Below, piece by piece: positions 4,066 to 62,379 of a stretch of DNA of 64,000 nucleotides. Each line of letters begins with the position of its first letter. Positions within the stretch are counted from its first letter, which is position 1. The notes below the pieces were generated by a model. The model saw only the letters and a program-made list of their open reading frames with translations, did no database searches and had not been told where the DNA came from. A program made the translations under genes and the position numbers. The DNA comes from Cyanidioschyzon merolae (taxonomy: Eukaryota): assembly GCA_000091205.1 (NCBI GenBank), contig AP006501.2. The stretch is one strand, 5' to 3'.

Positions 4066-4381
4066 AGCAACCATGCGCGCAAGCACTCTCTGCATCACGA
4101 CTTTAATGCCTCGAGCGACATCCGCGAATGTCCGGTACTTCCAGAGCATCCAGTGAGTATTACGTCGAGCGAACCTTGCGGCAATCGTTTGGTACCCAGT
4201 GGGCGCATTCTGCTGCAATGCTGCGGACATCCGCCAAACAGAATACGAATCCATGGGAGAGCGGCATGTTTTGCCTTGGCGGATCACGGCACTGGTGTGG
4301 TGCTGCTCAGCAATGCGGAAAGCATTGAGCGCGGTACGGATACTCTGGGGACGATTTGCGTTGGCAATATCTGAAAGACAA
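4066..4381. repeat. Direct repeat copy 2 (partner of 1-316)
   Basis: ~96% identity to window positions 1-316; diverges after ...gacaataatgtttc. Confidence 0.85.
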
Positions 4382-6950: not shown

Positions 6951-8649
6951 TCGCGCCGACGCGCTCGAGTCGGTGACTTTTTTCGCTCACCAAACGTTTA
7001 TGTTGTACCTGGATCCCTTATCGCGGGACGAGAACTGGCTATCGGGAAAGCGCCCATCGTGATACGCCTCACCCTCAAGTTCCATTCCTTACAATTCCTT
7101 TCGGATGTACTGGTCGTTTCATGGGTTGTATCGAGCATCGAGTGCCCGTCGTGCTGCATCCACCTTGGCGCCTAGACAGCTGGTGCAGATGCACCTTAGA
7201 GACAGAACGGCTTTGCTGTACCACTGGGGGCTTCGGCTCGAGATGTGGTGCACCTGACACGGATTCGGAGTCCATCATCATGCTGGGGGCCTGGAAACTG
7301 CGCTGAAAGAGCTACCGTCTGCGGCAGCTCGAAGCGACATGCCGGGAGTCCACTGCGACCAGGGCGACGCCCAGACGCAGCCTAACTGCTGCTCCTAGTC
7401 CCAGAGTCGACTGCGTTGCGGACGAGGTGTTCAGGTCGCACCACTGCACTAGGCACAGGTAAGGGCGTGAAGCACTAGTCTTGCAGACTCGTTCGGATTG
7501 CGGGCCGTTTCGCCCTGAAGGCAAACTTTCGGAAGTATGGAAACCTTTTCGCCCTTTTAACGGCTACCGTGGAATGGGACAGGAATCGTTACATCGTTTC
7601 TCGTGAATCGTTCGTCTCTTTCCTTTTTTTCTCCGAATAGCGCGGTCGATAAGCACACCTGCGAGATCACGCAGTCACGAGAGACGACGCGCATGTCGCC
7701 GATGAAGGGAAACGCGTTTCTAACTATGCTCTGACCTATTGCCCTACCGTACATGTTGTATTCGAATTACAGGCGTAGCGGAGTACAGTTTTTTGAGTTC
7801 AATCGCGTTTGAAACGTCAAGTAAGCATATTCAAGTGATGCTGTGCGGTGTATAGGAGAAGCGTTCAATGTGCGTTCTTTCGCAGAAAAAATTCTAAAAA
7901 AAGGAAAGTTATGAGAAAGCAAGTCGACGATCGCGGAGGCGCAGTGTCGCCGGCTGCCAGAAAAAGAACGAAAAACGGTGCCGAGCCCAGGAGCACAGGC
8001 AAAGACGATGAAGCAGAAGCGGGAGGCCCTACGTCAAAGGCCGCGGGAAAGACAACAGTACGACGAGACGGTGGTGAAAGCGTACCTTCGTAAACATATC
8101 AAGGATGCCTACAAGGAAAAGTTGCGAGAGGCCATCAGAAACCGTGTCGAGTCGTACTCCACGAGTACGAAGAAGGCTTCGTCAGGACTGATGCATATGG
8201 TGAACGAGATGCACGACAACGCGACGGACACCAGAACAGTCGAGGTTCCGGGGGAATTTTTCAACAAGACCTTTGCTCGTCACCTGATGGTCGGCACAGG
8301 GGAGCCGTCGACAAACAATGAGCGAGTGCACGCCTTCCACGAAAACTTCGCGGGATTCGGCTTCGAAGGTGCATCGATACAAGGGTTACGGGGATATTCA
8401 CATCTACGGGCCGATCGAGTACCTCGCGAACCTGAGGAACCATTTGACCATGAACCTCGAACGTTTCATGATACGCGCCGTGTTTGCGCTCTACCGGGGC
8501 ATCTCTCGCGGGGAAGAGATGGGCCATCTTCGCTGCCATCACCAACGATCGTCAGCATGAACAGGCAATAGAATTTGTCGACAAGATGACATCACGCAGG
8601 AGCATGAATGAAGCATATGTGATCGGTGCAGCTATTCAAGAGCGTCGTG

Positions 8650-8777
8650 GTAACACGGAGGTAGGGGGTTGGATAGATACTTCACCTCGCACTGAAAAAA
8701 TATCACAAAAAGTAAGAAAAGTAAAATGCGCATAATCGGAGAACGCTGGCCCAAGTAAACGTTTTGTCCATGGAAAA
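8650..8777 (-). mobile_element. ~130-bp MITE-like repeat, here called R2, nested inside copy A
   Basis: Absent from the orthologous position in copy B. Flanked by 12-bp direct repeats aagagcgtcgtg (8638-8649) and aagagcatcgtg (8778-8789). Homologous to 20355-20469 and 39066-39250. Confidence 0.7.
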
Positions 8778-9271
8778 AAGAGCATCGTGAAGTCTTGGGG
8801 CTGGCCAACCCGACAGAAGACGTGTCAGATATGAAAAAAGTGAGAAAAGATGGTACCCCCGCATCCTGCGCTACTTCGTGTTTCTGGACCGAGAACTCGA
8901 ACGCAAGGCGGAGATGGTGCTGGGTGTGTGGAAAAATGAAGAGTCGCGGAGACGGAACGCTTTCCCAATGGGGAAGTGCTTCAACGTGGTTCCAATGAGC
9001 AACATCAAGTCACATTTTGTGACTATCGACCAAGGCGTCCACTACGGCAACATGAGTGAGATCAGTCCGGTGTTCGGTGTCAGCAGGGAGGAGTTCACCG
9101 GTGAAAATCGGGAGACGTACCGGAAGAGTCTCTTCGGTTTCAAACGTCTCAAAGTGAGCAAGCAGAAGGTATTCACGGGGATGATCGGAACCGATGGCGT
9201 AGCCACGTGTGTACGCTATCGGAGGTTTGAAGGCGGATTGTCCAGTTCGGCCTTCGATATCGCCCGTAACG

Positions 9272-9421
9272 AAGCATGAAGAAAACAGGGAGGAGGATCC
9301 TGCCACACAGAAAGTGCAGGATAACGACTTTGTCGTTGACGCGACGAAGCGTGAAGATGAGATGGAGGCGGGTCCTGCTACGCAGAAAGTGCAGGATAAC
9401 GACTTTGTCGTTAGTGCGGAT
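9272..9421 (+). repeat. Tandem 66-nt repeat (two units) encoding an acidic [19 protein letters not shown] motif immediately N-terminal of RuvC-I
   Basis: [20 protein letters not shown] / [18 protein letters not shown] in A; four units at the same place in copy B. Confidence 0.7.
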
Positions 9422-10425
9422 CCCGGGAACACAAATATCATAACCATCGCAGTACCCAAGCGTGCGGAAGATGGTATCAACGGCAACCTACGTCAGACGG
9501 CCCTGCGAGTTTTGAGGTTCTCGAGAGCGGGATGCTATCGAGAATCCGGTATGATCAATGTGAGGAAGAAAATTGAGACACGGAATGCAGGAATGAAGGA
9601 TCTCCTGGAAGCTTTGCGCGGAGTAACGAGCAGAGGAGCAGGCTTTGAAGCTTTTCCGATATTCATGGAAGGTCGCGTTGCTCATTGGGATGCGCTGCTG
9701 GAGGAGTATACAAAGCCCCGGTGGGCTCGTCTGCGTATGAATCTGTACGGTGGTAAGCAGCGGGCATTCGCCAAATTTTTCAGTCAGTTGAGTGCCTTGA
9801 AGGAGGACGAGAGCCAGAGGCTGGTAGTGGCATACGGAGCAGGGCGTCCACAAAAGGGTGCACACCAGCTCCGTCGACGAGAACGTACAAAGCGTGTGCA
9901 CGGCGCTTTGTAATGATACCGATTGATGAGCTCCGAACGTCCTATACACACCACGAACTGGGGTACACACTTGAGACGGTCGACATGGAAAAGTGCCAGC
10001 GGAGTCCTGAAGATATGAAAAAGTATGGAGCGCTAACGGAGGAGCAAATGGACAGGAGGGCGAAAGTTCGTGGACTACTCGCATTAGTAAGTACAATCAA
10101 TGGCAAGAAACGCATGGAAATTGTTAACCGCGACTTTAACGCGGCTACCAATATAAGGAGGTGCGCGGTGATGGAGAGAAGACCTCCGTACTTGACAAGA
10201 GGGAATTTCGTAGGGAAACCTCTCGAGGTGGAATTATACGAGAAAAAGTTGAAACCGGTAGTAGGTGGCCGGTCCAAAAAGAATGTGAGGCATCTGCACG
10301 TCGACTGGAGGCGCATTGTCGAAAGCGCGCCGCGCTCCCGTTAAGCGCCAGTGCGCAGAAGAATTTCCTTCGGTTTCGAGGTATATTGAGAAGGGTCGCG
10401 TTCGTTCTGTGTAGAAAGCTGGACT

Positions 10426-19404: not shown

Positions 19405-19557
19405 ACGGCTGTTGCCCTGCGCGTCCTATTGTACGTTCCCAGGGCGACACGTCCCGCGAACCCCGCTGGCTCACAGAAGCAGAAACCGGAGGGGTGCGCT
19501 CCACGCTGCCGGATCCGCCTCCGCGTCGAGCACATCGCTGCGTTTTTGCTCAGTTTT

Positions 19558-19813
19558 ACAGAATGTTTCCATGGACTAGGGATACCAGATTGCGGGATGG
19601 ATATTGGCATTCGGGAGTGTGCCCATCATGATGCAACCTATGCTCAAGTTCCATGATGCATACTTTTTCTCGGGGGTGTACTGGTCGATTTGAATGTTGT
19701 ATCATGCGGCGAGTACCTGCCTTGCTGCAGCCGCTATACCGCCTATACCGCTGGTGTGGATGCAACCTAGAGACAGAACAGTTTTGCTGTATCGCAGAGG
19801 GCTTCGACTCGAG
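19558..19813. repeat. Inverted repeat, left arm (partner 24333-24578, ~95% identical)
   Basis: Reverse-complement identity seen directly; the spurious ORFs 19556-19765(-) and 24372-24782(+) translate identically. Confidence 0.85.
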
Positions 19814-19831
19814 AATGTAAACTTAACCTTC

Positions 19832-20545
19832 TCAAAGGCGCCTCTCGGCCTTTTTCGACCGGCCACCTGCTATCGGATTGAGTTTCTTTCTGTGCATATC
19901 GAGCCTGAGAGGCTGGCCCACAAAGCTGAATCGCATCAGCTCCTGGGGTCTCGTATCCAATACCGCACATGGTCTGATTTTGATGACGACGTTGAAGCCT
20001 CGATGCACAAACTCCATGCGTTTCTTTCCTCTGATGGAACGCAAAAGTGCTAGGATTCCGAGAACTCGCGACCTCTCTCCGATTCCAATCGCGCCATCGT
20101 CCCACAGGGCAAACTCCTTTTCTCGCCCATCTCCCTGTTCTTCTTCTTCTTCGTCACTTGCCCTTCTTCGCTCGATCGTCAGCGATGAGAGGTGTTTTCC
20201 CCTTTTTTCGTCTGCCAGCAATAACCACCAACCAGGATTCCCGACTTTTATGTCCATATCCTTCCCTTAGATTGTCACCTTCGTCAAAATGAACGCACTT
20301 TGCGTATATCTGCTATGAGCGGAGAATAGACCTTTGATGACACGCACTTGCAGGTTTTTTCATGGACAAAACGTTTACCTAGGCCAGCGTTCTCCGATTA
20401 TGCGCATTTTTCTTTTCTTACTTTTTTTGTGTTATTTTTCCAGTGCGCGGGAAAGTATCTGTCGAACCGCACGCACTTGCAGGTGGAACGCAATTGAGTT
20501 GAACGGTCATGAGCGCAGCACCTGGACGCCGCTTCCGCTGCGCTC
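19832..20545 (-). mobile_element. Copy D of the Fanzor-like family: internal-deletion derivative (5' ~250 bp joined to 3' ~300 bp) with a nested R2 insertion
   Basis: 5' region homologous to A 7790-7960 (..VGNPGWW.. versus VGDPGGP / DDRGGAV). 3' region KKRMEFVHRGFNVVIKIRPCAVL...GGRSKKAERRL. 3' terminus ggccggtcgaaaaaggccgagaggcgcct at ~19843. Confidence 0.7.
20355..20469 (+). mobile_element. R2 MITE-like repeat inserted into the 5' region of copy D
   Basis: Flanked by a perfect 14-bp direct repeat cacgcacttgcagg (20341-20354 and 20470-20483). Fanzor-like homology resumes on the far side. Confidence 0.7.
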
Positions 20546-23879: not shown

Positions 23880-24332
23880 TCGCCATGCGCTGTGGAGTCG
23901 TCACAGAGAAGGACAGGCACTGCCCATTTACTAATTGCGACTGTTCCAAATGAAGACAAGTCGCCAGGAACTAGCAACTAGATAACATTTCGTTCCACCT
24001 TCATGGTAAGCGTTGCAAAAGGGGAACTTTTTCCGTATTTTCGAAAGATTACCTTCGAGGCGGAAAGTCCCTCGCGCCAGACGAGTCTGCAGGGTTGGTG
24101 CTTGAAGCTATTCCCAGCGGCGGGTACAGTGCCGAGACCTCATTAGCTCGTCCACAACGCAGTTATTTTGGGACTTGGGGCGCCAAGGCTGCATCCAGGT
24201 ATTGGCTTGGTCGCAGTGGTCCCCTAACATATCGGTCCGTGCTGTCGCAAGCAGTATTTCTGGCTGCGCAGCTTGCAGGCTCCCAAATTGATGTTGAGTC
24301 CTGATTCTGTGACTTGTGAACCATGACGCGAG

Positions 24333-24578
24333 TCGAAGCCCTCTGCGATACAGCAAAACTGTTCTGTCTCCATGTTGCATCCACACCAGCGGTATAGGCG
24401 GTATAGCGGCTGCAGCAAGGCAGGTACTCGGCGCATGATACAACATTCAAATCGACCAGTACACCCCCGAGAAAAAGTATGCATCATGGAACTTGAAAGT
24501 AGGTTGCATCATGATGGGCACACTCCCGAATGCCAATATCCATCCCGCAATCTGGTATCCCTACTCCATGGAAACATT
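24333..24578. repeat. Inverted repeat, right arm (partner 19558-19813)
   Basis: Reverse complement of 19558-19813. Confidence 0.85.
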
Positions 24579-25258
24579 CTGTCAACCAAAAGAATCGTCG
24601 TGCGGTCGATTGGCGCGCTGGGGCGCTACGAAGCACGCATCGCATGTCTTGCGGGATCGAAGCGTCCAGCCAGGAATCCCCTCAGTGCGCACTTGACATC
24701 GGCAGCGGAGGCAAAAACCACCGCTCCATTCAAATCCAAAGCTCCCTGGTTCCATCACTCACCACCAAATAACCCGCCATGAAGCATCCCGATACCTATT
24801 GCGTGCCTCGTGGTCCCGTTGCATCGTTTGCAGATGCAGGATCGAGACATCGACCGAGATTCCCCGGCGGATGCGCGATTGCTCTCAGAAACCACATGAT
24901 AGAGCACCGCTCCATCCGAAACACCTCAAGTTCCGCAAACCCTGGGCCAGTACGCAACAACGGACACTGGGATTCGTTCCGTTCAACAACATGGGTCCTT
25001 CCAGGTATCGCGCACGCCTCAGGCGCTCGCTGTGACACAGTGCATGGGCCTGCACCACGCGGTTGCGCGGCGGTTGCACGCGCACCGAGGCGCCCCGACG
25101 AGCGCCGACTCGGCGATTCTGGATGCGTGCGCTGGTGTCGCATTCTGCAGCGATGCATCCGTGCCCTGGGCCTCGAGACACGTGTCCGGCATACAACATG
25201 CATGCACGCATGCATGTTGCACAGCGCCAAGTTTGGCATAGCGCGGGAGCTGCTCTGA

Positions 25259-31149: not shown

Positions 31150-31680
31150 GTGGAGAGCAAATTCGGACTGAATCGTAGGGATGCCTCCCAGCCGTTTTTG
31201 ACCGGCTGCCATATTCTCGATCCAGTTTTTGTCCAGGTAAACTTCGAGCCAGGCAGACTGCCCCACAAAGTTACATCGCGTCAGCTACGCGGGTTTCGTC
31301 ATTAGTACCATAAATCGTCTCATGTGGATGATGTTCTTCAAGTCTAGGATCACAAACTCCATGCGTTCGTTGCATCTAGTTGAACTCACTAGTCCAAAGA
31401 TTCCTCGAACTCGAGCGCGCAGTGCCATTTGGTGCTCTGTCAGCTCTGCGCGCTTTTCTGTCGCAGAATCGCTCCGCCGGCTCTTCTCCATTTCGTTCCT
31501 CTGAAGTATACGCCCCAGTTCATCCATTAGATTTTCTCTTTCGTCAAGCGAACATACTTCCTCACGCTCTTAGGTCAGGAGTTTCCCAGAGGATCGAAAG
31601 TCTTGCAAAAGAAAGACGAAATGTGCCCTGGTGTGTCACCGTGTGCTGAAAGCTTCAGCGATTCGCCCAGTGTAGCGATC
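31150..31680 (-). mobile_element. Copy E: Fanzor-like 3'-region fragment fused to an unrelated ~130-bp segment that is also found in copy G
   Basis: DELG..MEK..ELTEHQMALRARVRG..NERMEFVILDL..RRFMVL..LTRCNFVGQ. Upstream block gtcaccgtgtgctgaa.g.ttcagcgattcgccc (31633-31672) recurs at 47159-47197. Confidence 0.6.
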
Positions 31681-35279: not shown

Positions 35280-35785
35280 TAGAGACGATAGCGTGTGTGT
35301 CTGTACACCGATTTGCAGACGCCCCCCCCCCCCCCCGGGTTTTGCTCTAAGGGCCCCATGCCATCGGCTTTAGTTTCTTCTCGTGCACCTCGAGCCGGAG
35401 AGGATGTCCAACAAAGCTTGATCGCCTCAGCTCCTCGGGTCTTGTGTTCAGCACCGCACTTCTCCGGATATGGATCGCAGCGTTGAAGTCTCGGTTCACG
35501 AACTCCATGCATGTATTGCCGCTGTGGTTGAATTCACCAATGCAAGGGTTGATAGGACTCGTTCCCTCTGTACCAGTACAGTCTCGTCATCTACCCGTCA
35601 GGCAAACATCTTTTCTGACATATCTCCCCTCTTCGTATGCTCATTCTTCCTGCTCTTCTTCGCTTCATAGTCGACGAGAAGAGGATATTTTTGAAGCATC
35701 CAGCGATGATGACGGCCCTGCGGGATCCCCGACTTGCAAGTCCATACCTTTTCCTTGGATTTTATTTGCACTTTAAATCAACGCA
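35280..35785 (-). mobile_element. Copy F: internal-deletion derivative of the Fanzor-like family; contains a C16 tract
   Basis: 5' region aaaatccaaggaaaaggta...gtcggggatcccgcagggcc homologous to H and A; 3' region is diverged RuvC-III-like (antisense frame IAALKSRFTNSMHVLP); poly-C at 35322-35338. Confidence 0.55.
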
Positions 35786-36167
35786 CTTGGAATGCACCTG
35801 CTGTAACTCATGAAACCGCTTTTGATACCAGGCACCTGGATATGGAACACCATCGAGTTGATAGCCTAGAATCGGGGAATGGATCTCAGGGCAGCCGCCG
35901 TCGCCGCCGCTGCCGCCGCTGCATCGATCCACTCTCAGCGCAGCGCAGCAGCAGGGCGATGCAGTGCTCATCTGCAACCTCCGAAAACGTCCTACAAGGT
36001 GTTGCGTGAAGTACACGAGCACCTGTTTATCCTGGGGAATTTTCGAGGCAATCGATAGGTGTTTCTTTTTGGGGGCGGCTGCTGCGGCGATCGCTTGCTT
36101 TTTCATAGCGAGCACGGAGAGGCAGGGCTTGTCATCGGAGGGTACCGCTTGCTCCGCCCCCGTCACA

Positions 36168-39056: not shown

Positions 39057-39260
39057 CACGCGCAGGTTTTTTCATGGACAAGACGTTCACATAGGCCAGC
39101 GTTCTCCGATTATGCGCATTTTTCTTTTCTTACTTTTCTTGTGTGTTTTCTTTCAGTGCGCGGTGAGGTATCCATCAAACACCCGATCTCCAACGTACAT
39201 TACCGATACCTCTTCTCGGATATTCTGGTCGTTTCGTATCCGCATGCAGATCAACGCCAC
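39057..39260 (+). mobile_element. R2 repeat, longest copy (~185 bp)
   Basis: ttttttcatggacaagacgttcacataggccagcgttctccgattatgcgca...; flanked by ccacgcgcagg (39057) and ccacgcgcgg (39251). Confidence 0.55.
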
Positions 39261-42492: not shown

Positions 42493-43011
42493 CTACTGAA
42501 CGGAACACCAGCCCCGCGAAAAATACGGTTTAACAACCTCCGCGGTCGTCGCCGGTTGCGCCACCGTGCCAGTGCTGGAGCCACTGGTTCGTGCTGCTGC
42601 TGCTGCTGCTGCTGCTGCTTCCTTGCTGTGGGGCAGCTTTGACCCCTTGTCCTTCTTCTTCGGTTTGGAGGCCCCGGCTCCGGTGCTCTTTGGTGCTTTC
42701 TGTGACTTGGGCTTTTTCTTCTCTATTTTGTCCGGACGACGCTGCGCCGTAGCTTTGCTTTTCCGCGACAACTTGGACTCCCGTTCTAGTTTCAACGGTA
42801 TGGGCTCCCGTTTCGCTGCGCGGGCGGCTGCGGCAGCCGCGGCGGCGGCACGAGCCGGTGTTCGTCGCGGTGTGGGTAGTGGCGCCTCAGCCGTCGTGGG
42901 GCCGGCGGGTGCCGCCCTCGAAGGCAGCGCCGCCGTTGCCGCTTTTTTGTGCGGAATTTTTTGAGATTTTTTCTCTTCAGACTTGGTGCTTGATTTCATT
43001 TTCACGGTCAT
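42493..43011 (-). CDS. Lys/Ala-rich basic protein (histone-H1-like composition)
   Basis: Start taken at MTVKMKSS (43011); the longer N-terminal extension in the ORF track reads through tandem repeats and is an artefact. Confidence 0.35.
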   Translation of the reverse strand: MTVKMKSSTKSEEKKSQKIPHKKAATAALPSRAAPAGPTTAEAPLPTPRRTPARAAAAAAAAARAAKREPIPLKLERESKLSRKSKATAQRRPDKIEKKKPKSQKAPKSTGAGASKPKKKDKGSKLPHSKEAAAAAAAAARTSGSSTGTVAQPATTAEVVKPYFSRGWCSVQ

Positions 43012-43075
43012 AGAGGGTTGAGAGGGCCTTTCGTTATAGAAGAACGCGAAAACGTGGACCAAGCGCGCGACGTAA

Positions 43076-43197
43076 CGCATTCGTGCGTGCGCGCGCGAAT
43101 TCGTGCTTGTGCGCGCGCATTCGTGCGTGTGTGCGCGCTCTCGTGCGTGTGTGTGCGCGACGTAACGCATTCGTGCGTGTGTGCGCGCCTAGCGGCG
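43076..43197. repeat. ~6 tandem copies of a ~20-bp unit (attcgtgcgtgtgtgcgcgc) abutting the 3' terminus of copy B
   Basis: Seen directly: cattcgtgcgtgcgcgcgcg aattcgtgcttgtgcgcgcg cattcgtgcgtgtgtgcgcg ctctcgtgcgtgtgtgtgcgcg acgtaacgcattcgtgcgtgtgtgcgcg. Confidence 0.8.
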
Positions 43198-43204
43198 ACA
43201 TCTT

Positions 43205-45797
43205 TTTCATTGACAAAACGTCTCCAACTGACGTGCAGGCGCCTCCCAGTCTTTTCGGACCGGCCACCCACTACTGCTTCCAAATTCTTCTCATATAGTT
43301 CCACTTTGAGAGGTTGTCCAACAAAGTTCTCCCGTGTCAGCTCTGGAGGTCTATTCTCCAGCACAGGACATCTCCGTATATTGATAGCGGCGTTAAAGTC
43401 TCGATTCACAAACTCCATACGCTTCTTGCCGTCATTGGTTGTACTCACTAATGCAAGGAGTCCACGAACGTTCGCCCTCCTTTTCATTTGCTCCTCCGTC
43501 AGCGGTCCGTACTTTGCTATTTCCTCAGCGCTCCGCTGACACGTTTCCATCCCCACTCGCTGAAGTGTACATCCCAGTTCATGGTGTGTATACGATGTTC
43601 GAAACTCATCTATCGGTATCGTAACGAAACGCCGTGCACACTCCTTGTACGTTCTTGTCGTCGGAGCTGGCGTAGTTTTTTTTGGGTCTTCCAACACCCT
43701 GCCCTATACGCTACTGAGAGCCTCTGACTTTCATCCTCTATGAGGGCACTCAACTGATTGAAAAAGTTGGCAAACGCCCGCTGGTTACCACAATACAGAT
43801 TCATTCGCAAACGAGCCCATCTGGGCTTTGTATACTCCTCCGGCAGCGCATCCCAATGGGCAAAACGAACTTCCATGAATTTCCGGAAAGCTTCAAAGTC
43901 CGCTCCTCGGCTGGTCACCTCGCTCAAAGCTTCCAGGTGATCCTTCATTCCTGAATTCTACGTACAAATTTTCTTCCTCGCATTCATTATACCGGATTCT
44001 CGATTGTATCTCGCTCTCGAGAACCTCAAAAGGCGCATGTCTTTCTGACGTAAGTTGCCGTCAGTACCATCTTCCGCACGCTGCGGTGCTGCGATGGTGA
44101 TGATATTTGTGTTTCCGGGGTCAGCGCCAACGACAAAGTCGTTCTCATGCACTTTCTGCACCGCAGGACCCGCCTCCTTCTTTTCTTCATGCTTCGCCGC
44201 GTCAACCATAAAGTCGTTATTCTCCATCTCCTGCGCCGAAGGATCCGCCTTCTTCTCATCTTCATCCTTCGCCACGTCAACGACAAGGTCGTTATCCTCC
44301 ACCTCCTGCGTAGCAGGATGCTCCTCTTTGTTTTCTTCATCCTTCGTCACGTCAACGACAAACTCGGTATCCTCCACCTCCTGCATCACAGGATCCTCCT
44401 CTTTGTTTTCTTCATCCTTCGTGACGGGCGCGGCCGAGGGCGGGACTGGCCCATCTGTCTTCAACCGCCGGTGGTGTACACACATGGCTACCCCATCGAT
44501 TTCGATCAACCTAGTGAATACCTTTTGTTTTGCTCGAATTGAGAAGTTTGAAATCGAAGATATTCCCCCAGTACGTCTCACGGTTTTCACCGGGGAACTC
44601 TGTCTTCCTTACACCGAACTCCGGACTGATCTGCCTCATGATGCCGTGAAGGACTGCGGAGTCGATAGTCACAAAATGTGACTTGATGTTGCACAACGGA
44701 ACCACGTTGAAGCGCTTCCCCATTAGGGCAGCCCTCCGTCTCTACCACTCTTCATTTGTCTCTTCACTCAGCTTCATCTCTGCCTTGTGTTCGAGCTCTC
44801 GGTCGAGAAACACAAAATATCGCAGGAGGAGGCGATAGTATCTTTCCTTGTCTTTTTTTCAACTCTGATATCTTGTCTGTTGGATTCGCCAGCCCCAGTA
44901 CCGCACGATGCTCTTGTTTAGCCACACGGATTACAGAAGCTTCATTCGTGCTCTCGTTTGGCGCCTTCTTATCGACGAATTCGACCTCATCTTCATGCTT
45001 GCGATCGTCCGTGATGCCGTTGGTAATCGCCCGTACGCCTTTGCGATAGATGGCCCGGTACGGCGCACACACGGCGCGTATCATGAAACGTTCGAGGCTC
45101 ATCGTCAATTGGTTCTCCAGGTTCGTGAGGTACTTCATCGCCCCGTATGTGTAAATATTTCCGTCACCGCTGTATCGATTATCCTCGAAGCTGTAAAAGG
45201 GATGTTTTTCATGGAGGGCATCCACTAGCACATTTTCCTTCCGCGCTTCTGCTGTACCAAGCATCAGCTGTCGAATAAAGGTCTTGTCCAAGAAATCGTC
45301 CGGAATCTCGACCGTTTCAATATGCGCCACGTCTTCGTACATCTGCCTCGCCAAATGCATCACTCCTGACGACGCCTTGACAATGCTCTTGGAGTACTAG
45401 TCGACAAGTTTTTCGATAGCGTCTCGCAACTTTTCCGTGTACGGATTCTTGATATGTTTAAGAAGACCAGCTTTCACCACCATCTCGTCGTACAGTCGTC
45501 TTTCTTGCCGCCTTCGACGTAGGGCCTCCCGTTTTCGGTTCCTCTTCTCTTCTTTTTCTTCTGGACTCGGCACTGTTTTTTGTTTTTTTTCTAGCAGCCG
45601 GCGACCCTGGGCCTCCAGGATCGTGGACTTGCTTTTTCAAGACTTTCCTTTTCTAGTTTTTTTGGAAAAGAACGCTCCTTGAACCCTTCTGTTATACGCT
45701 ACGAAAAACACTTGACTAGACTTGTTTGAGGGTTGAAACACAAATGAACTGAAAACTTTATTTTTGTTCGAATCCTACGCGAATACAACTTTTACAG
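43205..45797 (-). mobile_element. Copy B of the Fanzor-like RuvC nuclease element, ~2.6 kb, frameshifted
   Basis: ORFs 45458-45640, 44764-45363, 44511-44723, 43958-44590, 43610-43948 and 43008-43697 on the minus strand. Ruv[20 protein letters not shown] (Asp ~44121). RuvC-III EFVNRDFNAAINIRRC (Asp ~43399). 5' terminus gttgtattcg shared with A. Confidence 0.8.
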
Positions 45798-46585
45798 CTG
45801 AACATCACGCTAGAGATCAGGATCGCGTTTTCCTTCAACGGCGGCATGCGCATCCTGTCTCATGCTTGCCTGATCTCCCAGGAACGCTCATTTAGCGCAC
45901 TGCGTGCACCGCGCGAGACGCCTCACCGATCGATGAAGGACACGTGTCCGACACCCCGCCTTGGCACATGCGTGTTCGCATCGCGCTGGAGCGAAAATCA
46001 AGTGTCCTAGATCGTGAACTCACGTAGAACGATCTCTTGCTGTAGGCTCTGTCGCTGGTGCCGACGCTACTGCCCATCGCAGTACCGTCCTGACATACAA
46101 GGGGATGCAGGGGCCTGGTACGATACCCGTCGACGCGTCTATCAAACGCGTAGCGTTCTCTGCGGCTTACGCTTGTGCGGATGAGATATGCATCACTCTA
46201 CTCATTAGAAATTTCGTTACATTTATTGATCGTAAACAAACAAGGTACGGTAGTGTTCCCCAACACGGATACAAGTTTATTTCATTTGCTTGTTATACAT
46301 GCCGCACGGACGCTGGAATAAGGAACTAACCTGAATTTTGCTTCCACCCGGCGTCACGGGCTGGAACTGATGGCGCTTCAAGTCATTTCCATGCTGCTGT
46401 CGTTGTTCAACTTATGGTGCCTGCATCGTCCTCCGGATCCGGTGATCTTGGCCGAGGCATACCACACATATAGCGTCCAGATCTGCCACGACGTTTGAAC
46501 ATTGCATCTCGCCTGGCATGATCGACACGCTTGAGAAAAGCGCATACTGTATTCTGGTCTACTCTATCAGATTATATACAATTGC

Positions 46586-47200
46586 CTAACCCGTACATCG
46601 ACGACCGCAGACCAACAACAAACGCCTTCCAAAAGAAAAACGTTTTCGCCAGCCGTGTACAGTAGTGGCGCTCTGCGCGCCCCAGACGAAACGTCTCAAT
46701 CTACCAGTCCGCAGACGCCTCTCAGGCTTTGTTGAACGGCCGACTGGTATCGATCTCAGCTTCTCCTTGTACAATTCGAGACTGGGAGGCTGTCCCACAC
46801 CAAAGTTGACATGCCACAGCGCCACGGATCTCGTCTTCAGAACCGCACATCCCCTGATATTGCTAGCAGTGTTAAAGTCTCGGTTAACAAACACCATGCG
46901 TTTATTGCCTCTTCTTGAACTTGTCCATGCAAGGAGTCGTCGAAGTCATGCCCTCACTGCCATTTAGTGCTCTATCAGCTCTCCGTGCTTTTCTGTCGCC
47001 GAAGCGCCCCGCTGGCTCTTCTCTATCTCATTCTTCTGAAGTGTACACCCGGGCTCATCCCTTGATTTTTCAAAATGAAGAAACTTGTTTATATCTTTAA
47101 GTTGGAACCCTCCCGGAGGGATAAGCACTTGCGGGGAAAACATGACATGAGCCCCGTAATGTCACCGTGTGCTGAACGTTTCAGCGATTCGCCCCGCAGA
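46586..47200 (-). mobile_element. Copy G: Fanzor-like 3' fragment plus the extension shared with E
   Basis: MVFVNRDFNTASNIRGCAVL...LELYKEKLRSIPVGRSTKPERRL; upstream gtcaccgtgtgctgaacgtttcagcgattcgccc. Confidence 0.6.
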
Positions 47201-58349: not shown

Positions 58350-58440
58350 TTGGGTGGCGCTCGATTCGCGCGCGATGAGGCACCCATCGTTCCATCTACT
58401 TCCAAGTTCCATAACCCATACTTCTTCTCGGATATTCTTG
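58350..58440 (+). repeat. Partial R2 repeat (3' part)
   Basis: gcgcgatgaggcacccatcg...ccatacttcttctcggatattcttg homologous to 39160-39230. Confidence 0.45.
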
Positions 58441-58574
58441 TTGCTTCACGTCTTGTTTTGTGCAGCGAGTGCTTGCAGTGAGCTCCCACGATAGCACCTA
58501 TATCATCGGTGCGGTCGTTGCACAGAAGCAGGACGGGTTTGTCGTACCACAGATGGCGTCGGCACGAGCGGGTA

Positions 58575-59175
58575 GACTGATACCCACGCACAGGCGCCTC
58601 GCAGTGTTTTTTGACCGGCCCTCTGCTATCGGTAGTAATGCTTGTCCGTGCACGTTTCGAGTCTGAGAGTCTGTCCCATTAAGTAAGATGGCCTAATTTC
58701 GTCAGCACTCGTCTTCATCCCCACACATCGTCTGATATTCATGGCGGTGGTGACGTCTCGGTTCACGAACGCTATTCGTGCATTGACACTGATTGAACGC
58801 ACCAATGCAATGATTGCTAGAACTCGCGTACCCAGCGCCACTGACGCCTTGTTGTCGCCCCATTCTACAAATACCTTTTCTCGTGTCTTGCCCTTCTTCT
58901 ACTTTTCATCGTCATTTGCGCTTCTTCGGTCTATTGTCGGTGGGAAGAGGCTTTTTTCGTTTTCTTCCTGCAACCGGCGATGGTGGCCCTCCTGGATCCC
59001 CGACTACCATGTGCGTACGTTTTCCTTGGATTTTTTTTGTTTCATCAAATGAAGACACTTCGAATGCATCCGCTATACACCGCGAAAAAGCATTTGATGA
59101 CATACACATTGACCTGGAACTCCATTTATGTGAAGGACTGTAATGATGGCGCTGTCGTGGCGAACGCTTTGCTTG
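58575..59175 (-). mobile_element. Copy H: internal-deletion derivative of the Fanzor-like family (5' ~280 bp + 3' ~320 bp)
   Basis: 5' region ggtgtatagcggatgc...gtcggggatccaggagggcc...cgccggttgcaggaagaaaacgaaaaa (VGDPGGPPSPVAGRKRKK) aligned to A 7830-7960. 3' region IAFVNRDVTTAMNIRRC...ggccggtcaaaaaacactgcgaggcgcctg. Confidence 0.7.
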
Positions 59176-60959: not shown

Positions 60960-61550
60960 GCGGTATGCGAAAGAATCTGGACTGTGGGAGGCAGCGTGCA
61001 TTCGTCAACTTTTTCAATCAGTTGAGCGCCTTGAAGGAGGATCAAAGTCAGAGGCTCGTAGTAGCGTACGGAGCAGGGCGCTGGAAGACCCATAAAGGGA
61101 CGAGGCCAGCTCCAACGACAAGAATGTATGAGGCGTGCACACGGCGTTTCGTTACGATACCGATAGATGAGTTCCGAATATCCTATACACACCATGAACT
61201 GGGATGCACACTTCAGAGGGTCGAGATGGAAACGTGCCAACGGAGCCCTGAGGATATAAAAAAGCACGGACCGCTGACGGAAGAGCAAATGGAAAGGAGG
61301 GCGAAAGTTCGTGGACAACTTGCACTAGTGAGTACAACCTATGATAGTAAGAAACGTATGGAGTTCGTGAATCGTGACTTTAATCCTGCTATCAATATAA
61401 GGAAATGTGCGGTGCTGGAGACGAGACCTCCAGAGTAGACAAGACAGAATTTTACTGGACAACCTCTCAAGATTGAACCATATGAGAAAAAGTTTGAAGC
61501 AGTAGTGAGTGGCCGGTCGAAAAAGGCCGGGAAGCGTCTGTACGTCAGTT
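60960..61550 (+). mobile_element. Copy C: 5'-truncated Fanzor-like 3' fragment lying in the divergent MECR/NDUFS8 promoter region
   Basis: Single-frame QRAFVNFFNQLSALKEDQSQRLVVAYGAG...RRFVTIPIDEFRISYTHHELGCTLQRVEMETCQRS...KKRMEFVNRDFNPAINIRKCAVLETRPPE; 3' terminus ...ctgtacgtcagttggag at ~61548. Confidence 0.75.
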
Positions 61551-61638
61551 GGAGCCTTCTCGTCCAGGGCGGGTTTTTCGCCACTACTGTATACCGCTGG
61601 CGACGTTCGACTTTAGAACGGCGTTTACTTTTGGTGAA

Positions 61639-62379
61639 ATGAACCGCTTTACACGCTCTCTTCTTCAGAGTGTCTACGCTATACCGCAAACCGGCTTGTC
61701 GAGGTGCTGTTTTGGGAGCTGGTCGTCGCGAGCTGTGCTGGACGCTGGCCAACGCGTCAGTGCGAGTCTGCTGGGCACCAGGCAGGAGCTCCGTCTAACG
61801 CAACAGCGGGAGCAGCGCGTTCTCCGGCACTCGTTCTCGACGCAATTGAACCCTGGTGGAACAGAGCGCGCGCAGCGGTCGCTCGAGTCCCTTCTGGATC
61901 GCCCAGCGCAAGTGCTGTTCCTGACGGAGCTCTGGAGAGGCCTTGGGAACCTGCTCGACATATTCTTCGACCCAAAAGCGATGTACACCATCAACTATCC
62001 CCAGGAAAAAACTCCTGTCTCACCGAGGTTTCGGGGTGAGCACGCCTTGCGACGTTACCCAACTGGCGAGGAGCGCTGCATCGCCTGCAGTCTGTGCTCC
62101 GCGGCGTGTCCGGCACTGGCGATCACCATCGAGGCAGAGCCCCGACCAGACGGCTCCCGGCGAACAACGCGCTACGATATTGACGGCTCCAAGTGCATTT
62201 ACTGTGGGTTATGTCAGGAAGCGTGCCCCGTCGACGCAATTGTGGAGTCCCCTACGCTCGAGAGCGCCGTAGAAACCCACGAGGAGCTGCTCTGGAACAA
62301 GGAGAAGCTTCTCTCAAACGGCGATCGATGGGAGCCCGAGCTCGCCCGAGCTATCGAGGCAGATGCCCCGTATCGCTGA
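61639..62379 (+). CDS. NDUFS8: NADH dehydrogenase (ubiquinone) iron-sulfur protein 8 (TYKY / NuoI, 2x[4Fe-4S])
   Basis: [21 protein letters not shown]...[18 protein letters not shown]; start at [10 protein letters not shown] (61639). Confidence 0.85.

Follow-up and report, generated by a model that had tools for sequence, protein, structure and literature searches.

The 64,000-nucleotide stretch of Cyanidioschyzon merolae DNA analyzed here (contig AP006501.2), called the window below, contains eight copies, A to H, of one repeat family whose two longest members carry the remains of a Fanzor1 gene. The question raised by this locus is whether the 3' end of the element encodes the omega-RNA of its protein and, if so, where the element ends. 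A sequence-only reading had placed a possible omega-RNA scaffold at positions 10230-10330, in copy A, with the guide just outside it. This interval is C-terminal coding sequence of copy A and not the element end. Beyond the stop codon we found a structured, covarying module of about 90 nt. By analogy with characterized Fanzor1 loci, we consider with fair probability that this module is the omega-RNA scaffold of this Fanzor1 and that the adjacent flank is the guide. The repeat family itself was confirmed: blastn with copy A against the window returned B, C, D, E and G, and copies F and H were recovered through direct-repeat family D1 of a repeat finder.

The element end and its 3' module

A metagenome scan yielded more than 507 loci related to the element, of which 80 were kept. 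In 71 distinct 3' ends, similarity between copies ran 60-90 nt past TGGAG, to ..GGCGUU(U), and then collapsed. In the tail, the frequency of T was 0.87 at +1, and that of G+T was 0.49-0.89 (mostly 0.6-0.9) over +1 to about +12, followed by background composition. Subfamilies shared tails of about 12-13 nt, either ...UUUCCAGGGG, present in five different genomic contexts, or UGUUGGUGYGUG, after which the flanks were unrelated. The tail bias, together with shared tails before unrelated flanks, indicates that the element ends about 12-13 nt past the terminal hairpin, at 61636 in copy C and at 46610 in copy G.

The 3' module consists, in this order, of a stop-codon hairpin, a GC hairpin, the linker CCACUACUGUACAC, a terminal hairpin of 9-11 bp and a G/U-rich tail of 12-13 nt. 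From the last codons on, its consensus is AGACGUUUCGUCUAG-GGCGCGGUUGCCGCC-ACUACUGUACAC-(5-10 nt)-ACGUCGUUCGACUUUCGAACGGCGU-UUGUUGGUG. The stop-codon hairpin overlaps the last 4-5 codons of the open reading frame (ORF). The linker is 14 nt long, single-stranded and near-invariant; as CGCCACUACUGUACAC it was the best-conserved stretch, with a diversity of about 0.1 compared to about 0.2-0.25 at presumably neutral sites. In one metagenomic copy (L022:672-796) the last 48 nt of the module, comprising linker and terminal hairpin, were tandemly duplicated. The 3' untranslated region (UTR) of a distant homologue, P0057 (L083), represented by one sequence only, had no comparable architecture (z -0.77), and the contig of another, P0053, ends 32 nt past the gene.

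Presence of the module in the window was judged by a covariance-model search. The model was built from an alignment of 19 copies and gave 81 matches in the metagenome loci and the window, representing 61 distinct sequences. The modules and the flanks that would correspond to guides are as follows.

61549-61636, plus strand: 3' module of copy C, candidate omega-RNA scaffold (covariance-model match 61549-61630, 82.2 bits, E 1.8e-23)
46610-46700, minus strand: 3' module of copy G (covariance-model match 46700-46616, 53.1 bits, E 1.4e-14)
10305-10375, plus strand: degenerate 3' module of copy A (8.7 bits, E 0.5; z -0.01)
61637-61656, plus strand: putative guide-equivalent flank of copy C, AAATGAACCGCTTTACACGC, by analogy with SpuFz1 and if the module is an omega-RNA
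46590-46609, minus strand: putative guide-equivalent flank of copy G, TGCGGTCGTCGATGT.., on the same analogy; it runs into the g1 module of copy B

It had been stated that all eight copies retain the 3' terminus. The true terminal module was kept by only two of the eight, C (82 bits) and G (53 bits). In copy C a decayed stop-codon hairpin is followed by the GC hairpin GGCGGGUUUUUCGCC, the linker CCACUACUGUAUAC, a terminal hairpin whose last bases, GGCGU, reach 61624, and the tail UUACUUUUGGUG. In copy G it comprises the stop hairpin AGACG-UUU-CGUCU, the GC hairpin GGCGCGCAGAGCGCC, the linker CCACUACUGUACAC, the terminal hairpin ACGUUUUUC-UUUU-GGAAGGCGU and the tail UUGUUGUUGGUC; its minimum free energy (MFE) was -35.6 with z -3.02, compared to z +0.27 on the antisense strand. 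Copy A lacks the terminal hairpin, and only its stop-codon hairpin and its GC hairpin (AGCGCGC-CGCGCU) were recognizable. Copy B scored 7.9 bits and had the stop hairpin only, followed below 43212 by low-complexity sequence of the CACACGCACG type. The model did not detect the module in D, E, F or H.

Two further observations concern these 3' regions. In copy B the 3' UTR gives way to a low-complexity tract of the CACACGCACGAATGCG type (43008-43210), which continues into an Ala/Lys-rich ORF (42493-43170), and the same replacement was found in L009-L012 and L015. Downstream of copy E (31180-31260, minus strand), a different 8-bp hairpin, CGUGAAAC-CGUUCUC-GUUUCACG, was read by eye at the place of the terminal hairpin and is missed by the covariance model; it may be a third terminal-hairpin variant.

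Pairing within the module was conserved, with compensatory changes. Single-sequence folds of nearly all copies contained the same terminal hairpin. In the alignment of 19 variant-I copies made with MAFFT only, the three-hairpin structure paired in 84.8% of cells, compared to at most 48.6% with slid partners, and five pairs carried double changes, a number reached by 6 of 500 shuffles. Among the 61 distinct copies, 81.2% of cells paired against 35-52% with slid partners, 14 of 22 pairs carried double changes, and the covariation score was 0.158, compared to 0.137 +/- 0.006 after shuffling (reached by none of 500) and 0.036-0.071 with slid partners; as their alignment was fitted to the model and the copies are related, these values lean towards structure. 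The two versions of the terminal hairpin, ACGUCGUUCGA-CUU-UCGAACGGCGU (11 bp) and AACGUUUUUC-UUUU-GAAAGGCGUU (9-10 bp), differ in their inner stems, and U-G, C-G and U-A alternated at the same positions (for example in L033, L050 and L002). Changes from AGACG/CGUCU to AGACU/AGUCU were found in the stop-codon hairpin. When the 5' hairpin and the GC hairpin were compared by reading, no co-variation was seen. Cells departing from Watson-Crick pairing were G·U in 169 cases and A·C in 29, and the mean MFE was -27.1 kcal/mol for the sense strand and -21.6 kcal/mol for the antisense strand, which assigns the structure to the ORF-bearing strand.

The interval that had been proposed as scaffold has a different composition.

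10230-10330, plus strand: last ~31 codons of the copy A ORF remnant (..EVELYEKKLKPVVGGRSKKNVRHLHVDWRRIV) and a degenerate stop-codon hairpin

The ORF ends in ..GGRSKK..RRLHVSWRRFV in A, B and C, and TGG AGA CGT TT(C/T) GTC TAG encodes WRRFV and the stop. The motif taken for the terminus is therefore the end of the ORF, its last ~20 codons. Because the terminus had been set too early, by 60-90 nt, the guides proposed for A (10321ff), B (43204-43227) and C (61551ff) are all wrong: they fall within the ORF end or the 3' UTR module instead of outside the element. The 24-nt motif quoted in support had an exact match in B and a match with 3 mismatches in C, compared to 0 expected by chance; A differed from it at 5 positions, and D and H diverged after GAGGCGCC.

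Retention of the last ~250-300 bp in every copy had also been reported. In an eight-way alignment (A1; mean column identity 64%) the last ~200-230 bp of the ORF were indeed common to all eight copies, and only ordinary coding constraint was observed in its last 250 nt. Third-position diversity was 0.18-0.27 there and 0.155-0.31 elsewhere in the ORF. For the last ~95 columns of the ORF (alignment columns 105-200), RNAalifold predicted no consensus structure. The scaffold position proposed at 10230-10330 is wrong, and the folding and covariation check that had been suggested pointed to the module downstream of the stop and not to the ORF end. The special retention is explained by the 5' truncation of six of the eight copies and not by stronger sequence constraint. 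Two hairpins in the ORF end were considered and rejected, both having weak or no compensatory support: AGACG-GGGAGG-CGUCU, which was 80% paired with three of its five pairs departing only via unpaired cells, and GGCCGG../..CCGGG.

These results agree with the explanation that the interval has no function beyond protein coding, its retention being a by-product of 5' truncation or deletion and of a conserved basic C-terminal tail (GGRSKK..RRLHVSWRR). Third-position diversity equal to that of the rest of the ORF, the lack of an RNAalifold structure, the poor showing of the first hairpin as sole ORF-internal candidate, and the fact that copies D and H end at a TE-N2 junction all speak for it. However, the block GGCCGGTC.AAAAA (GGCCGGUC.AAAAA) was retained even in D, E, G and H, which are pseudogene fragments of 65-70% identity. 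In addition, the 35-aa tail of the protein (QPLKVELYEKKLEAVVGGRSKK..WRRFV) was missing from distant homologues and is lost to a stop codon in the one copy examined that is nearly intact. The absence or interruption of this tail and the persistence of the block leave room for a short overlap of RNA and ORF, and the tail may be read-through into RNA-coding sequence. Since protein coding explains the interval and not the conserved module downstream of it, we regard it as a quite improbable account of the 3' end.

The protein and its repeat family

The analogy with TnpB and Fanzor on which the scaffold had been proposed proved sound, as the element protein is a Fanzor1 by profile comparison and predicted fold. 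A query stitched from copy B retrieved 69 homologues, all metagenomic. The profile of 14 of them matched SpuFz1 of Spizellomyces punctatus (PDB 8GKH) with E 1.6e-5 over profile positions 277-649, and in this match the catalytic motifs aligned with IDPNKRD, DEYKTS and NRD of SpuFz1. An AlphaFold2 model (predicted local distance difference test score, pLDDT, 70.8; predicted template-modeling score, pTM, 0.60) was obtained for P0001, a near-full-length homologue that is 83% identical over its best local alignment, covering 45% of the stitched query. The top seven Foldseek matches of this model in the PDB were SpuFz1, PpFz1 and GtFz1 (E 6e-14 to 7e-12; target TM-score 0.48-0.67), followed by Cas12 (E 5e-3) and Fanzor2 (E 0.05). 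Only the profile and fold searches succeeded; Pfam gave no matches for single ORF fragments or for the homologues, and a single-sequence PDB search gave none.

The consensus of 24 non-redundant full-length copies contained an intact ORF of 784 codons with the split RuvC residues D/E/D in DPGNTN, DEFRTS and NRDFNAAINIRRC (the NRDFNAA motif). The ratio of third-position to first- and second-position diversity was 1.7-5.5 across the RuvC half (codons 476-729), which shows purifying selection on the protein during the spread of the family. In the window, RuvC motifs were readable in A and B (ADPGNTN / DE(F/L)RTS / NRDFNAA; in copy A, ADPGNTN / DELRTS / NRDFNAA). Both of these long ORFs are pseudogenes with multiple frameshifts and stops and the other six copies are fragments, so that no intact Fanzor ORF was found in the window. 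Between RuvC-II and RuvC-III the canonical C4 zinc finger, the motif of Bao & Jurka 2013, was absent; the sequence reads TSYTHHELGCTLQRVEMEKCQ, without CxxC pairs. This position was not conserved among distant homologues. The fold and the catalytic motifs of the element protein are otherwise retained.

A 75-bp tandem repeat lies just before RuvC-I (9269-9412 in A, 44124-44426 in B) and encodes an acidic 25-aa unit, ..KDEE.KEA.PATQEV.DNDFVVD. Copy A has 2 units of it, copy B has 4 and the consensus has 3, and the region was predicted to be disordered (pLDDT <30). The distant intact homologue P0053 (40% identity, brine metagenome; L084:435-1343) adjoins a gene for a Tc1/mariner-type DDE_3 transposase, which fits capture of Fanzor1 by Mariner elements.

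The published family CMe-1A of C. merolae has ~150 copies of ~3 kb with ~80% identity to the consensus; it has no terminal inverted repeats (TIRs), its target-site duplications (TSDs) are unresolved, and its 5' 635 bp are identical to a separate repeat, TE-N2_CMe (Bao & Jurka 2013, PMC3627910). The window element fits CMe-1A, as inferred from this description and not from the consensus sequence. It resembles CMe-1A in its length of ~3 kb, ~80% identity, many decayed copies and lack of TIRs and clear TSDs, in a 5' segment of ~635-690 bp common to TE-N2_CMe, and in its compact, intron-poor host genome with ~55% GC. The 2013 paper (PMC3627910) predates the discovery of omega-RNA and is silent on the 3' module, the hairpins, the g1 module and the 3' bias of the fragments. 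The window copies, of which A and B are 74-80% identical, are listed below.

7641-10329, plus strand: copy A, Fanzor1 core; pseudogene with several frameshifts and stops and a 130-bp insertion at 8650-8779 resembling a miniature inverted-repeat transposable element (MITE)
6975-7640, plus strand: 5' module ('g2') of copy A, TE-N2_CMe-like
43212-45874, minus strand: copy B, Fanzor1 core; pseudogene with frameshifts and stops, 3' UTR module lost
45875-46590, minus strand: alternative 5' module ('g1') of copy B, ~720 bp, common to 8 other distinct loci
60963-61636, plus strand: copy C; 5'-truncated, 3' end complete
46610-47058, minus strand: copy G; 5'-truncated, 3' end complete, terminal-hairpin variant II
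31180-31668, minus strand: copy E; diverged ORF fragment, 5'-truncated, canonical 3' module not detected
19815-20342, minus strand: copy D; short diverged fragment without 3' module, its ORF end fused to an inverted TE-N2 piece (19555-19814)
35352-35853, minus strand: copy F; short diverged fragment of the D/H type, without 3' module
58570-59125, minus strand: copy H; short diverged fragment without 3' module, its ORF end fused to an inverted TE-N2 piece (58403-58568)

The MITE-like repeat inside the copy A ORF is about 130 bp long and recurs with 83-89% identity at 20355-20468, 39060-39238 and L001:3394-3565. The TE-N2_CMe-like repeat of ~650 bp was found in three settings: it forms the 5' module of copy A, it stands alone at 24030-24560 (minus strand), and parts of it are the inverted pieces fused to D and H. 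Positions 19555-19811 and 24329-24585 form an inverted pair with 97% identity, which suggests a recent duplication.

Copies G and B are arranged head to tail. At 46590-46610, the right end of G is separated from the start of the ~720-bp g1 module of copy B by 15-21 nt, roughly the length of one guide. The JGI metagenome contigs L010 and L011 were 99% identical to window positions 46635-45800, a junction of the same type was present in L004:148-1060 at 80% identity, and a degenerate version was found in L014:130-275. These junctions may represent one amplified ancestral composite or a recurrent insertion site.

Scaffold or end signal

Characterized Fanzor1 loci encode their omega-RNA between, or across, stop codon and right end and take its guide from the flank (PMC10432273). 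Without an omega-RNA a Fanzor1 is not active, and in every characterized case this RNA is encoded at this place (PMC10432273). Fanzor1 scaffolds contain one to three stem-loops after SL1. If the ~90-nt module has this role, it would be present in sense orientation in the Fanzor transcript, either as its 3' UTR or through read-through, the Fanzor1 protein would bind its RNA as scaffold, and ~15-20 nt of flanking DNA after the tail would act as guide. The same hairpins could in addition be the cis end signal for whatever mobilizes the element. The window copies could be active only with protein supplied by an intact copy located elsewhere in the genome. That the module is transcribed and processed, that the protein binds it and that the flank acts as guide is here inferred from the characterized systems. 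The left flanks ended in ..GCA, ..CCA or ..ATA, and independent insertions were too few to define a transposon-adjacent motif (TAM).

Several results weigh against this assignment, beside the lean of the 61-copy statistics noted above. The sequence of the tail, and perhaps its length, varies between subfamilies, which is unusual for a fixed junction of scaffold and guide. The thermodynamic signal was modest (mean z -1.13 sense, -1.02 antisense; copy C z -0.18), and Rfam gave no match in the whole window at the gathering threshold. With the last 295 nt aligned by MAFFT alone, RNAalifold reached -6.65 kcal/mol and recovered only the GC hairpin in the UTR, because MAFFT mis-registers the two hairpin variants. 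Pairing of the tail with the segment before the terminal hairpin looked striking in copy G and the CCAGGGG subfamily, but own tails were no better than swapped ones (mean -6.56 vs -6.12 kcal/mol, median percentile 0.5), and it was rejected as a general feature. Among 81 metagenome loci, just one ORF of at least 500 aa with both DPG and NRD was found in a full-length element, L001 (duplicate L031), and the 599-aa ORF of L043 is without its N-terminal third. A DNA-level end signal would account equally for the hairpins at both ends, the missing inverted repeats and the 5'-truncated copies, and the sense-strand bias does not separate RNA from top-strand single-stranded DNA (ssDNA).

The last of the points above lead to the explanation that the module is a DNA-level cis end signal only, a subterminal hairpin with a short terminal motif and no RNA role. 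Its top strand would be recognized by a trans-acting HUH, rolling-circle or one-ended enzyme, as in Helitron2-borne Fanzor1 or IS200/IS605. Hairpins occur at both element ends and TIRs are absent; Bao & Jurka likewise reported no TIRs or TSDs for CMe-1A (PMC3627910). The 5' truncation of six of the eight window copies resembles the 3' over-abundance of the Fanzor1 Helitron2 elements of C. reinhardtii. The G-B head-to-tail junction and the tandem duplication of the terminal 48 nt in L022 are also in line with an end signal, and ssDNA hairpins tolerate G·T wobbles as well. However, no transposase ORF of at least 280 aa was found in the window, the ends are not of the 5'-TC / CTRR-3' type, and the window contains no inverted counterpart of the would-be asymmetric terminal inverted repeat. 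The characterized Fanzor1 omega-RNAs are, in addition, all encoded at this place. We consider a purely DNA-level role unlikely, while giving it more weight than the other alternatives.

The right-end hairpin of IS200/IS605 elements is also part of the omega-RNA, so that the DNA-signal and RNA roles are not exclusive.

The module could otherwise be an ordinary element of an mRNA 3' UTR, or a 3' stem-loop with a short repeat tail used by a reverse transcriptase that leaves 5'-truncated retro-copies. The sense-strand structure, the place directly after the stop, the 5'-truncated copies and the variable G/T-rich tail are compatible with either form. On the other side, no reverse transcriptase gene was seen in the window and no TSDs were seen, the sharp element boundary coincides with the module end and points to a mobile-element terminus, and a conserved single-stranded linker of 14 nt is atypical of terminators. 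This possibility appears very slight.

A scaffold at the element end remains our preferred interpretation. Its relation to mobility is far more doubtful. The family may spread by one-ended, replicative or omega-RNA-directed insertion or homing, with the 3' module being both guide-RNA scaffold and transposition end, and we put this forward as a distinctly speculative idea. It was suggested by the lack of TIRs and of an own transposase, the hairpin ends, the 5'-truncated progeny and the start of the next element 15-21 nt past the previous right end. TSDs around C and G were not evident. As a candidate for the asymmetric inverted repeats of Helitron2-type elements, CCACTACTGTACAC was tried and rejected, having no inverted copy in the window. 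Membership of Helitron or Helitron2 was not supported: the 3' hairpin lies 12-13 nt from the end, but instead of CTRR the tail is rich in G and T, and the window has no RepHel gene. For IS200/IS605, a TnpA gene was absent from the window and from beside the related copies examined, though the hairpin ends and lack of TIRs would agree with such elements.

The remainder of the window is compact, intron-poor eukaryotic DNA of ~55% GC with housekeeping genes, including those for 6PGD, isoamylase, ThrRS, PHO4 and RNase III and others. For the PAPS-reductase ORF, the sole match was on a JGI metagenome contig. A direct repeat of 300 nt at its start (1-300 and 4067-4366) has 96% identity, with the two units 4 kb apart.

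In the library searched, Fanzor and Cyanidioschyzon are named together by Bao & Jurka 2013 and by one paper on the green alga Auxenochlorella, neither of which is on the omega-RNA of this family. The element family has been known since 2013 and the 3'-end rule for Fanzor omega-RNA since 2023; the present analysis adds a corrected anatomy and a testable scaffold prediction. As it stands, the result is an expected property of a known family, and its main practical value is in fixing the ends of the ORF and of the element and in identifying the copies that still carry the module. If the module were confirmed as an omega-RNA, a Fanzor1 of defined scaffold would be added from a red alga, a host that is moderately thermo-acidophilic and genetically tractable. 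A family without inverted repeats or a linked transposase could also help to explain how such Fanzor1 elements persist and move. If one-ended insertion or homing were true, the mobility of 'orphan' Fanzor1 elements would be testable in a transformable red alga.

Comparison with known systems

A close characterized counterpart is SpuFz1 with its element Spu-1 (Saito et al. 2023, PMC10432273; 8GKH). The two share the Fanzor1 fold and, as far as the few independent left flanks here show, CA-type dinucleotides before the left end, and loci that keep the RNA module, here a putative one, but no usable gene exist in both (PMC10432273). In contrast to the present element, which has hairpin ends, no TIRs and gene-less copies that are 5'-truncated fragments, Spu-1 has 30-nt TIRs and its ghost loci keep both ends. 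SpuFz1 has a canonical CxxC..CxxC zinc finger, whereas HH..C..C is found here.

The omega-RNA of the ISDra2 TnpB starts inside the 3' end of its ORF, with a larger overlap than in GtFz1. The RNA of GtFz1 likewise starts inside the ORF end and overlaps 17 aa (PMC10432273). This arrangement is the model of the sequence-only reading. In the present family the stop-codon hairpin overlaps the last 4-5 codons, but no extra nucleotide-level constraint was observed further upstream in the ORF, and any overlap of RNA and ORF is therefore probably short.

The Helitron2-borne elements CRe-1/2/3 of C. reinhardtii (Bao & Jurka 2013, PMC3627910) differ from the window element, for which neither asymmetric terminal inverted repeats nor a T-rich target nor any resemblance to the ends of Helitrons was found, and RepHel is absent from the window. 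Both groups have hairpins at both ends, are over-represented by 3' ends with 5' truncation and are non-autonomous.

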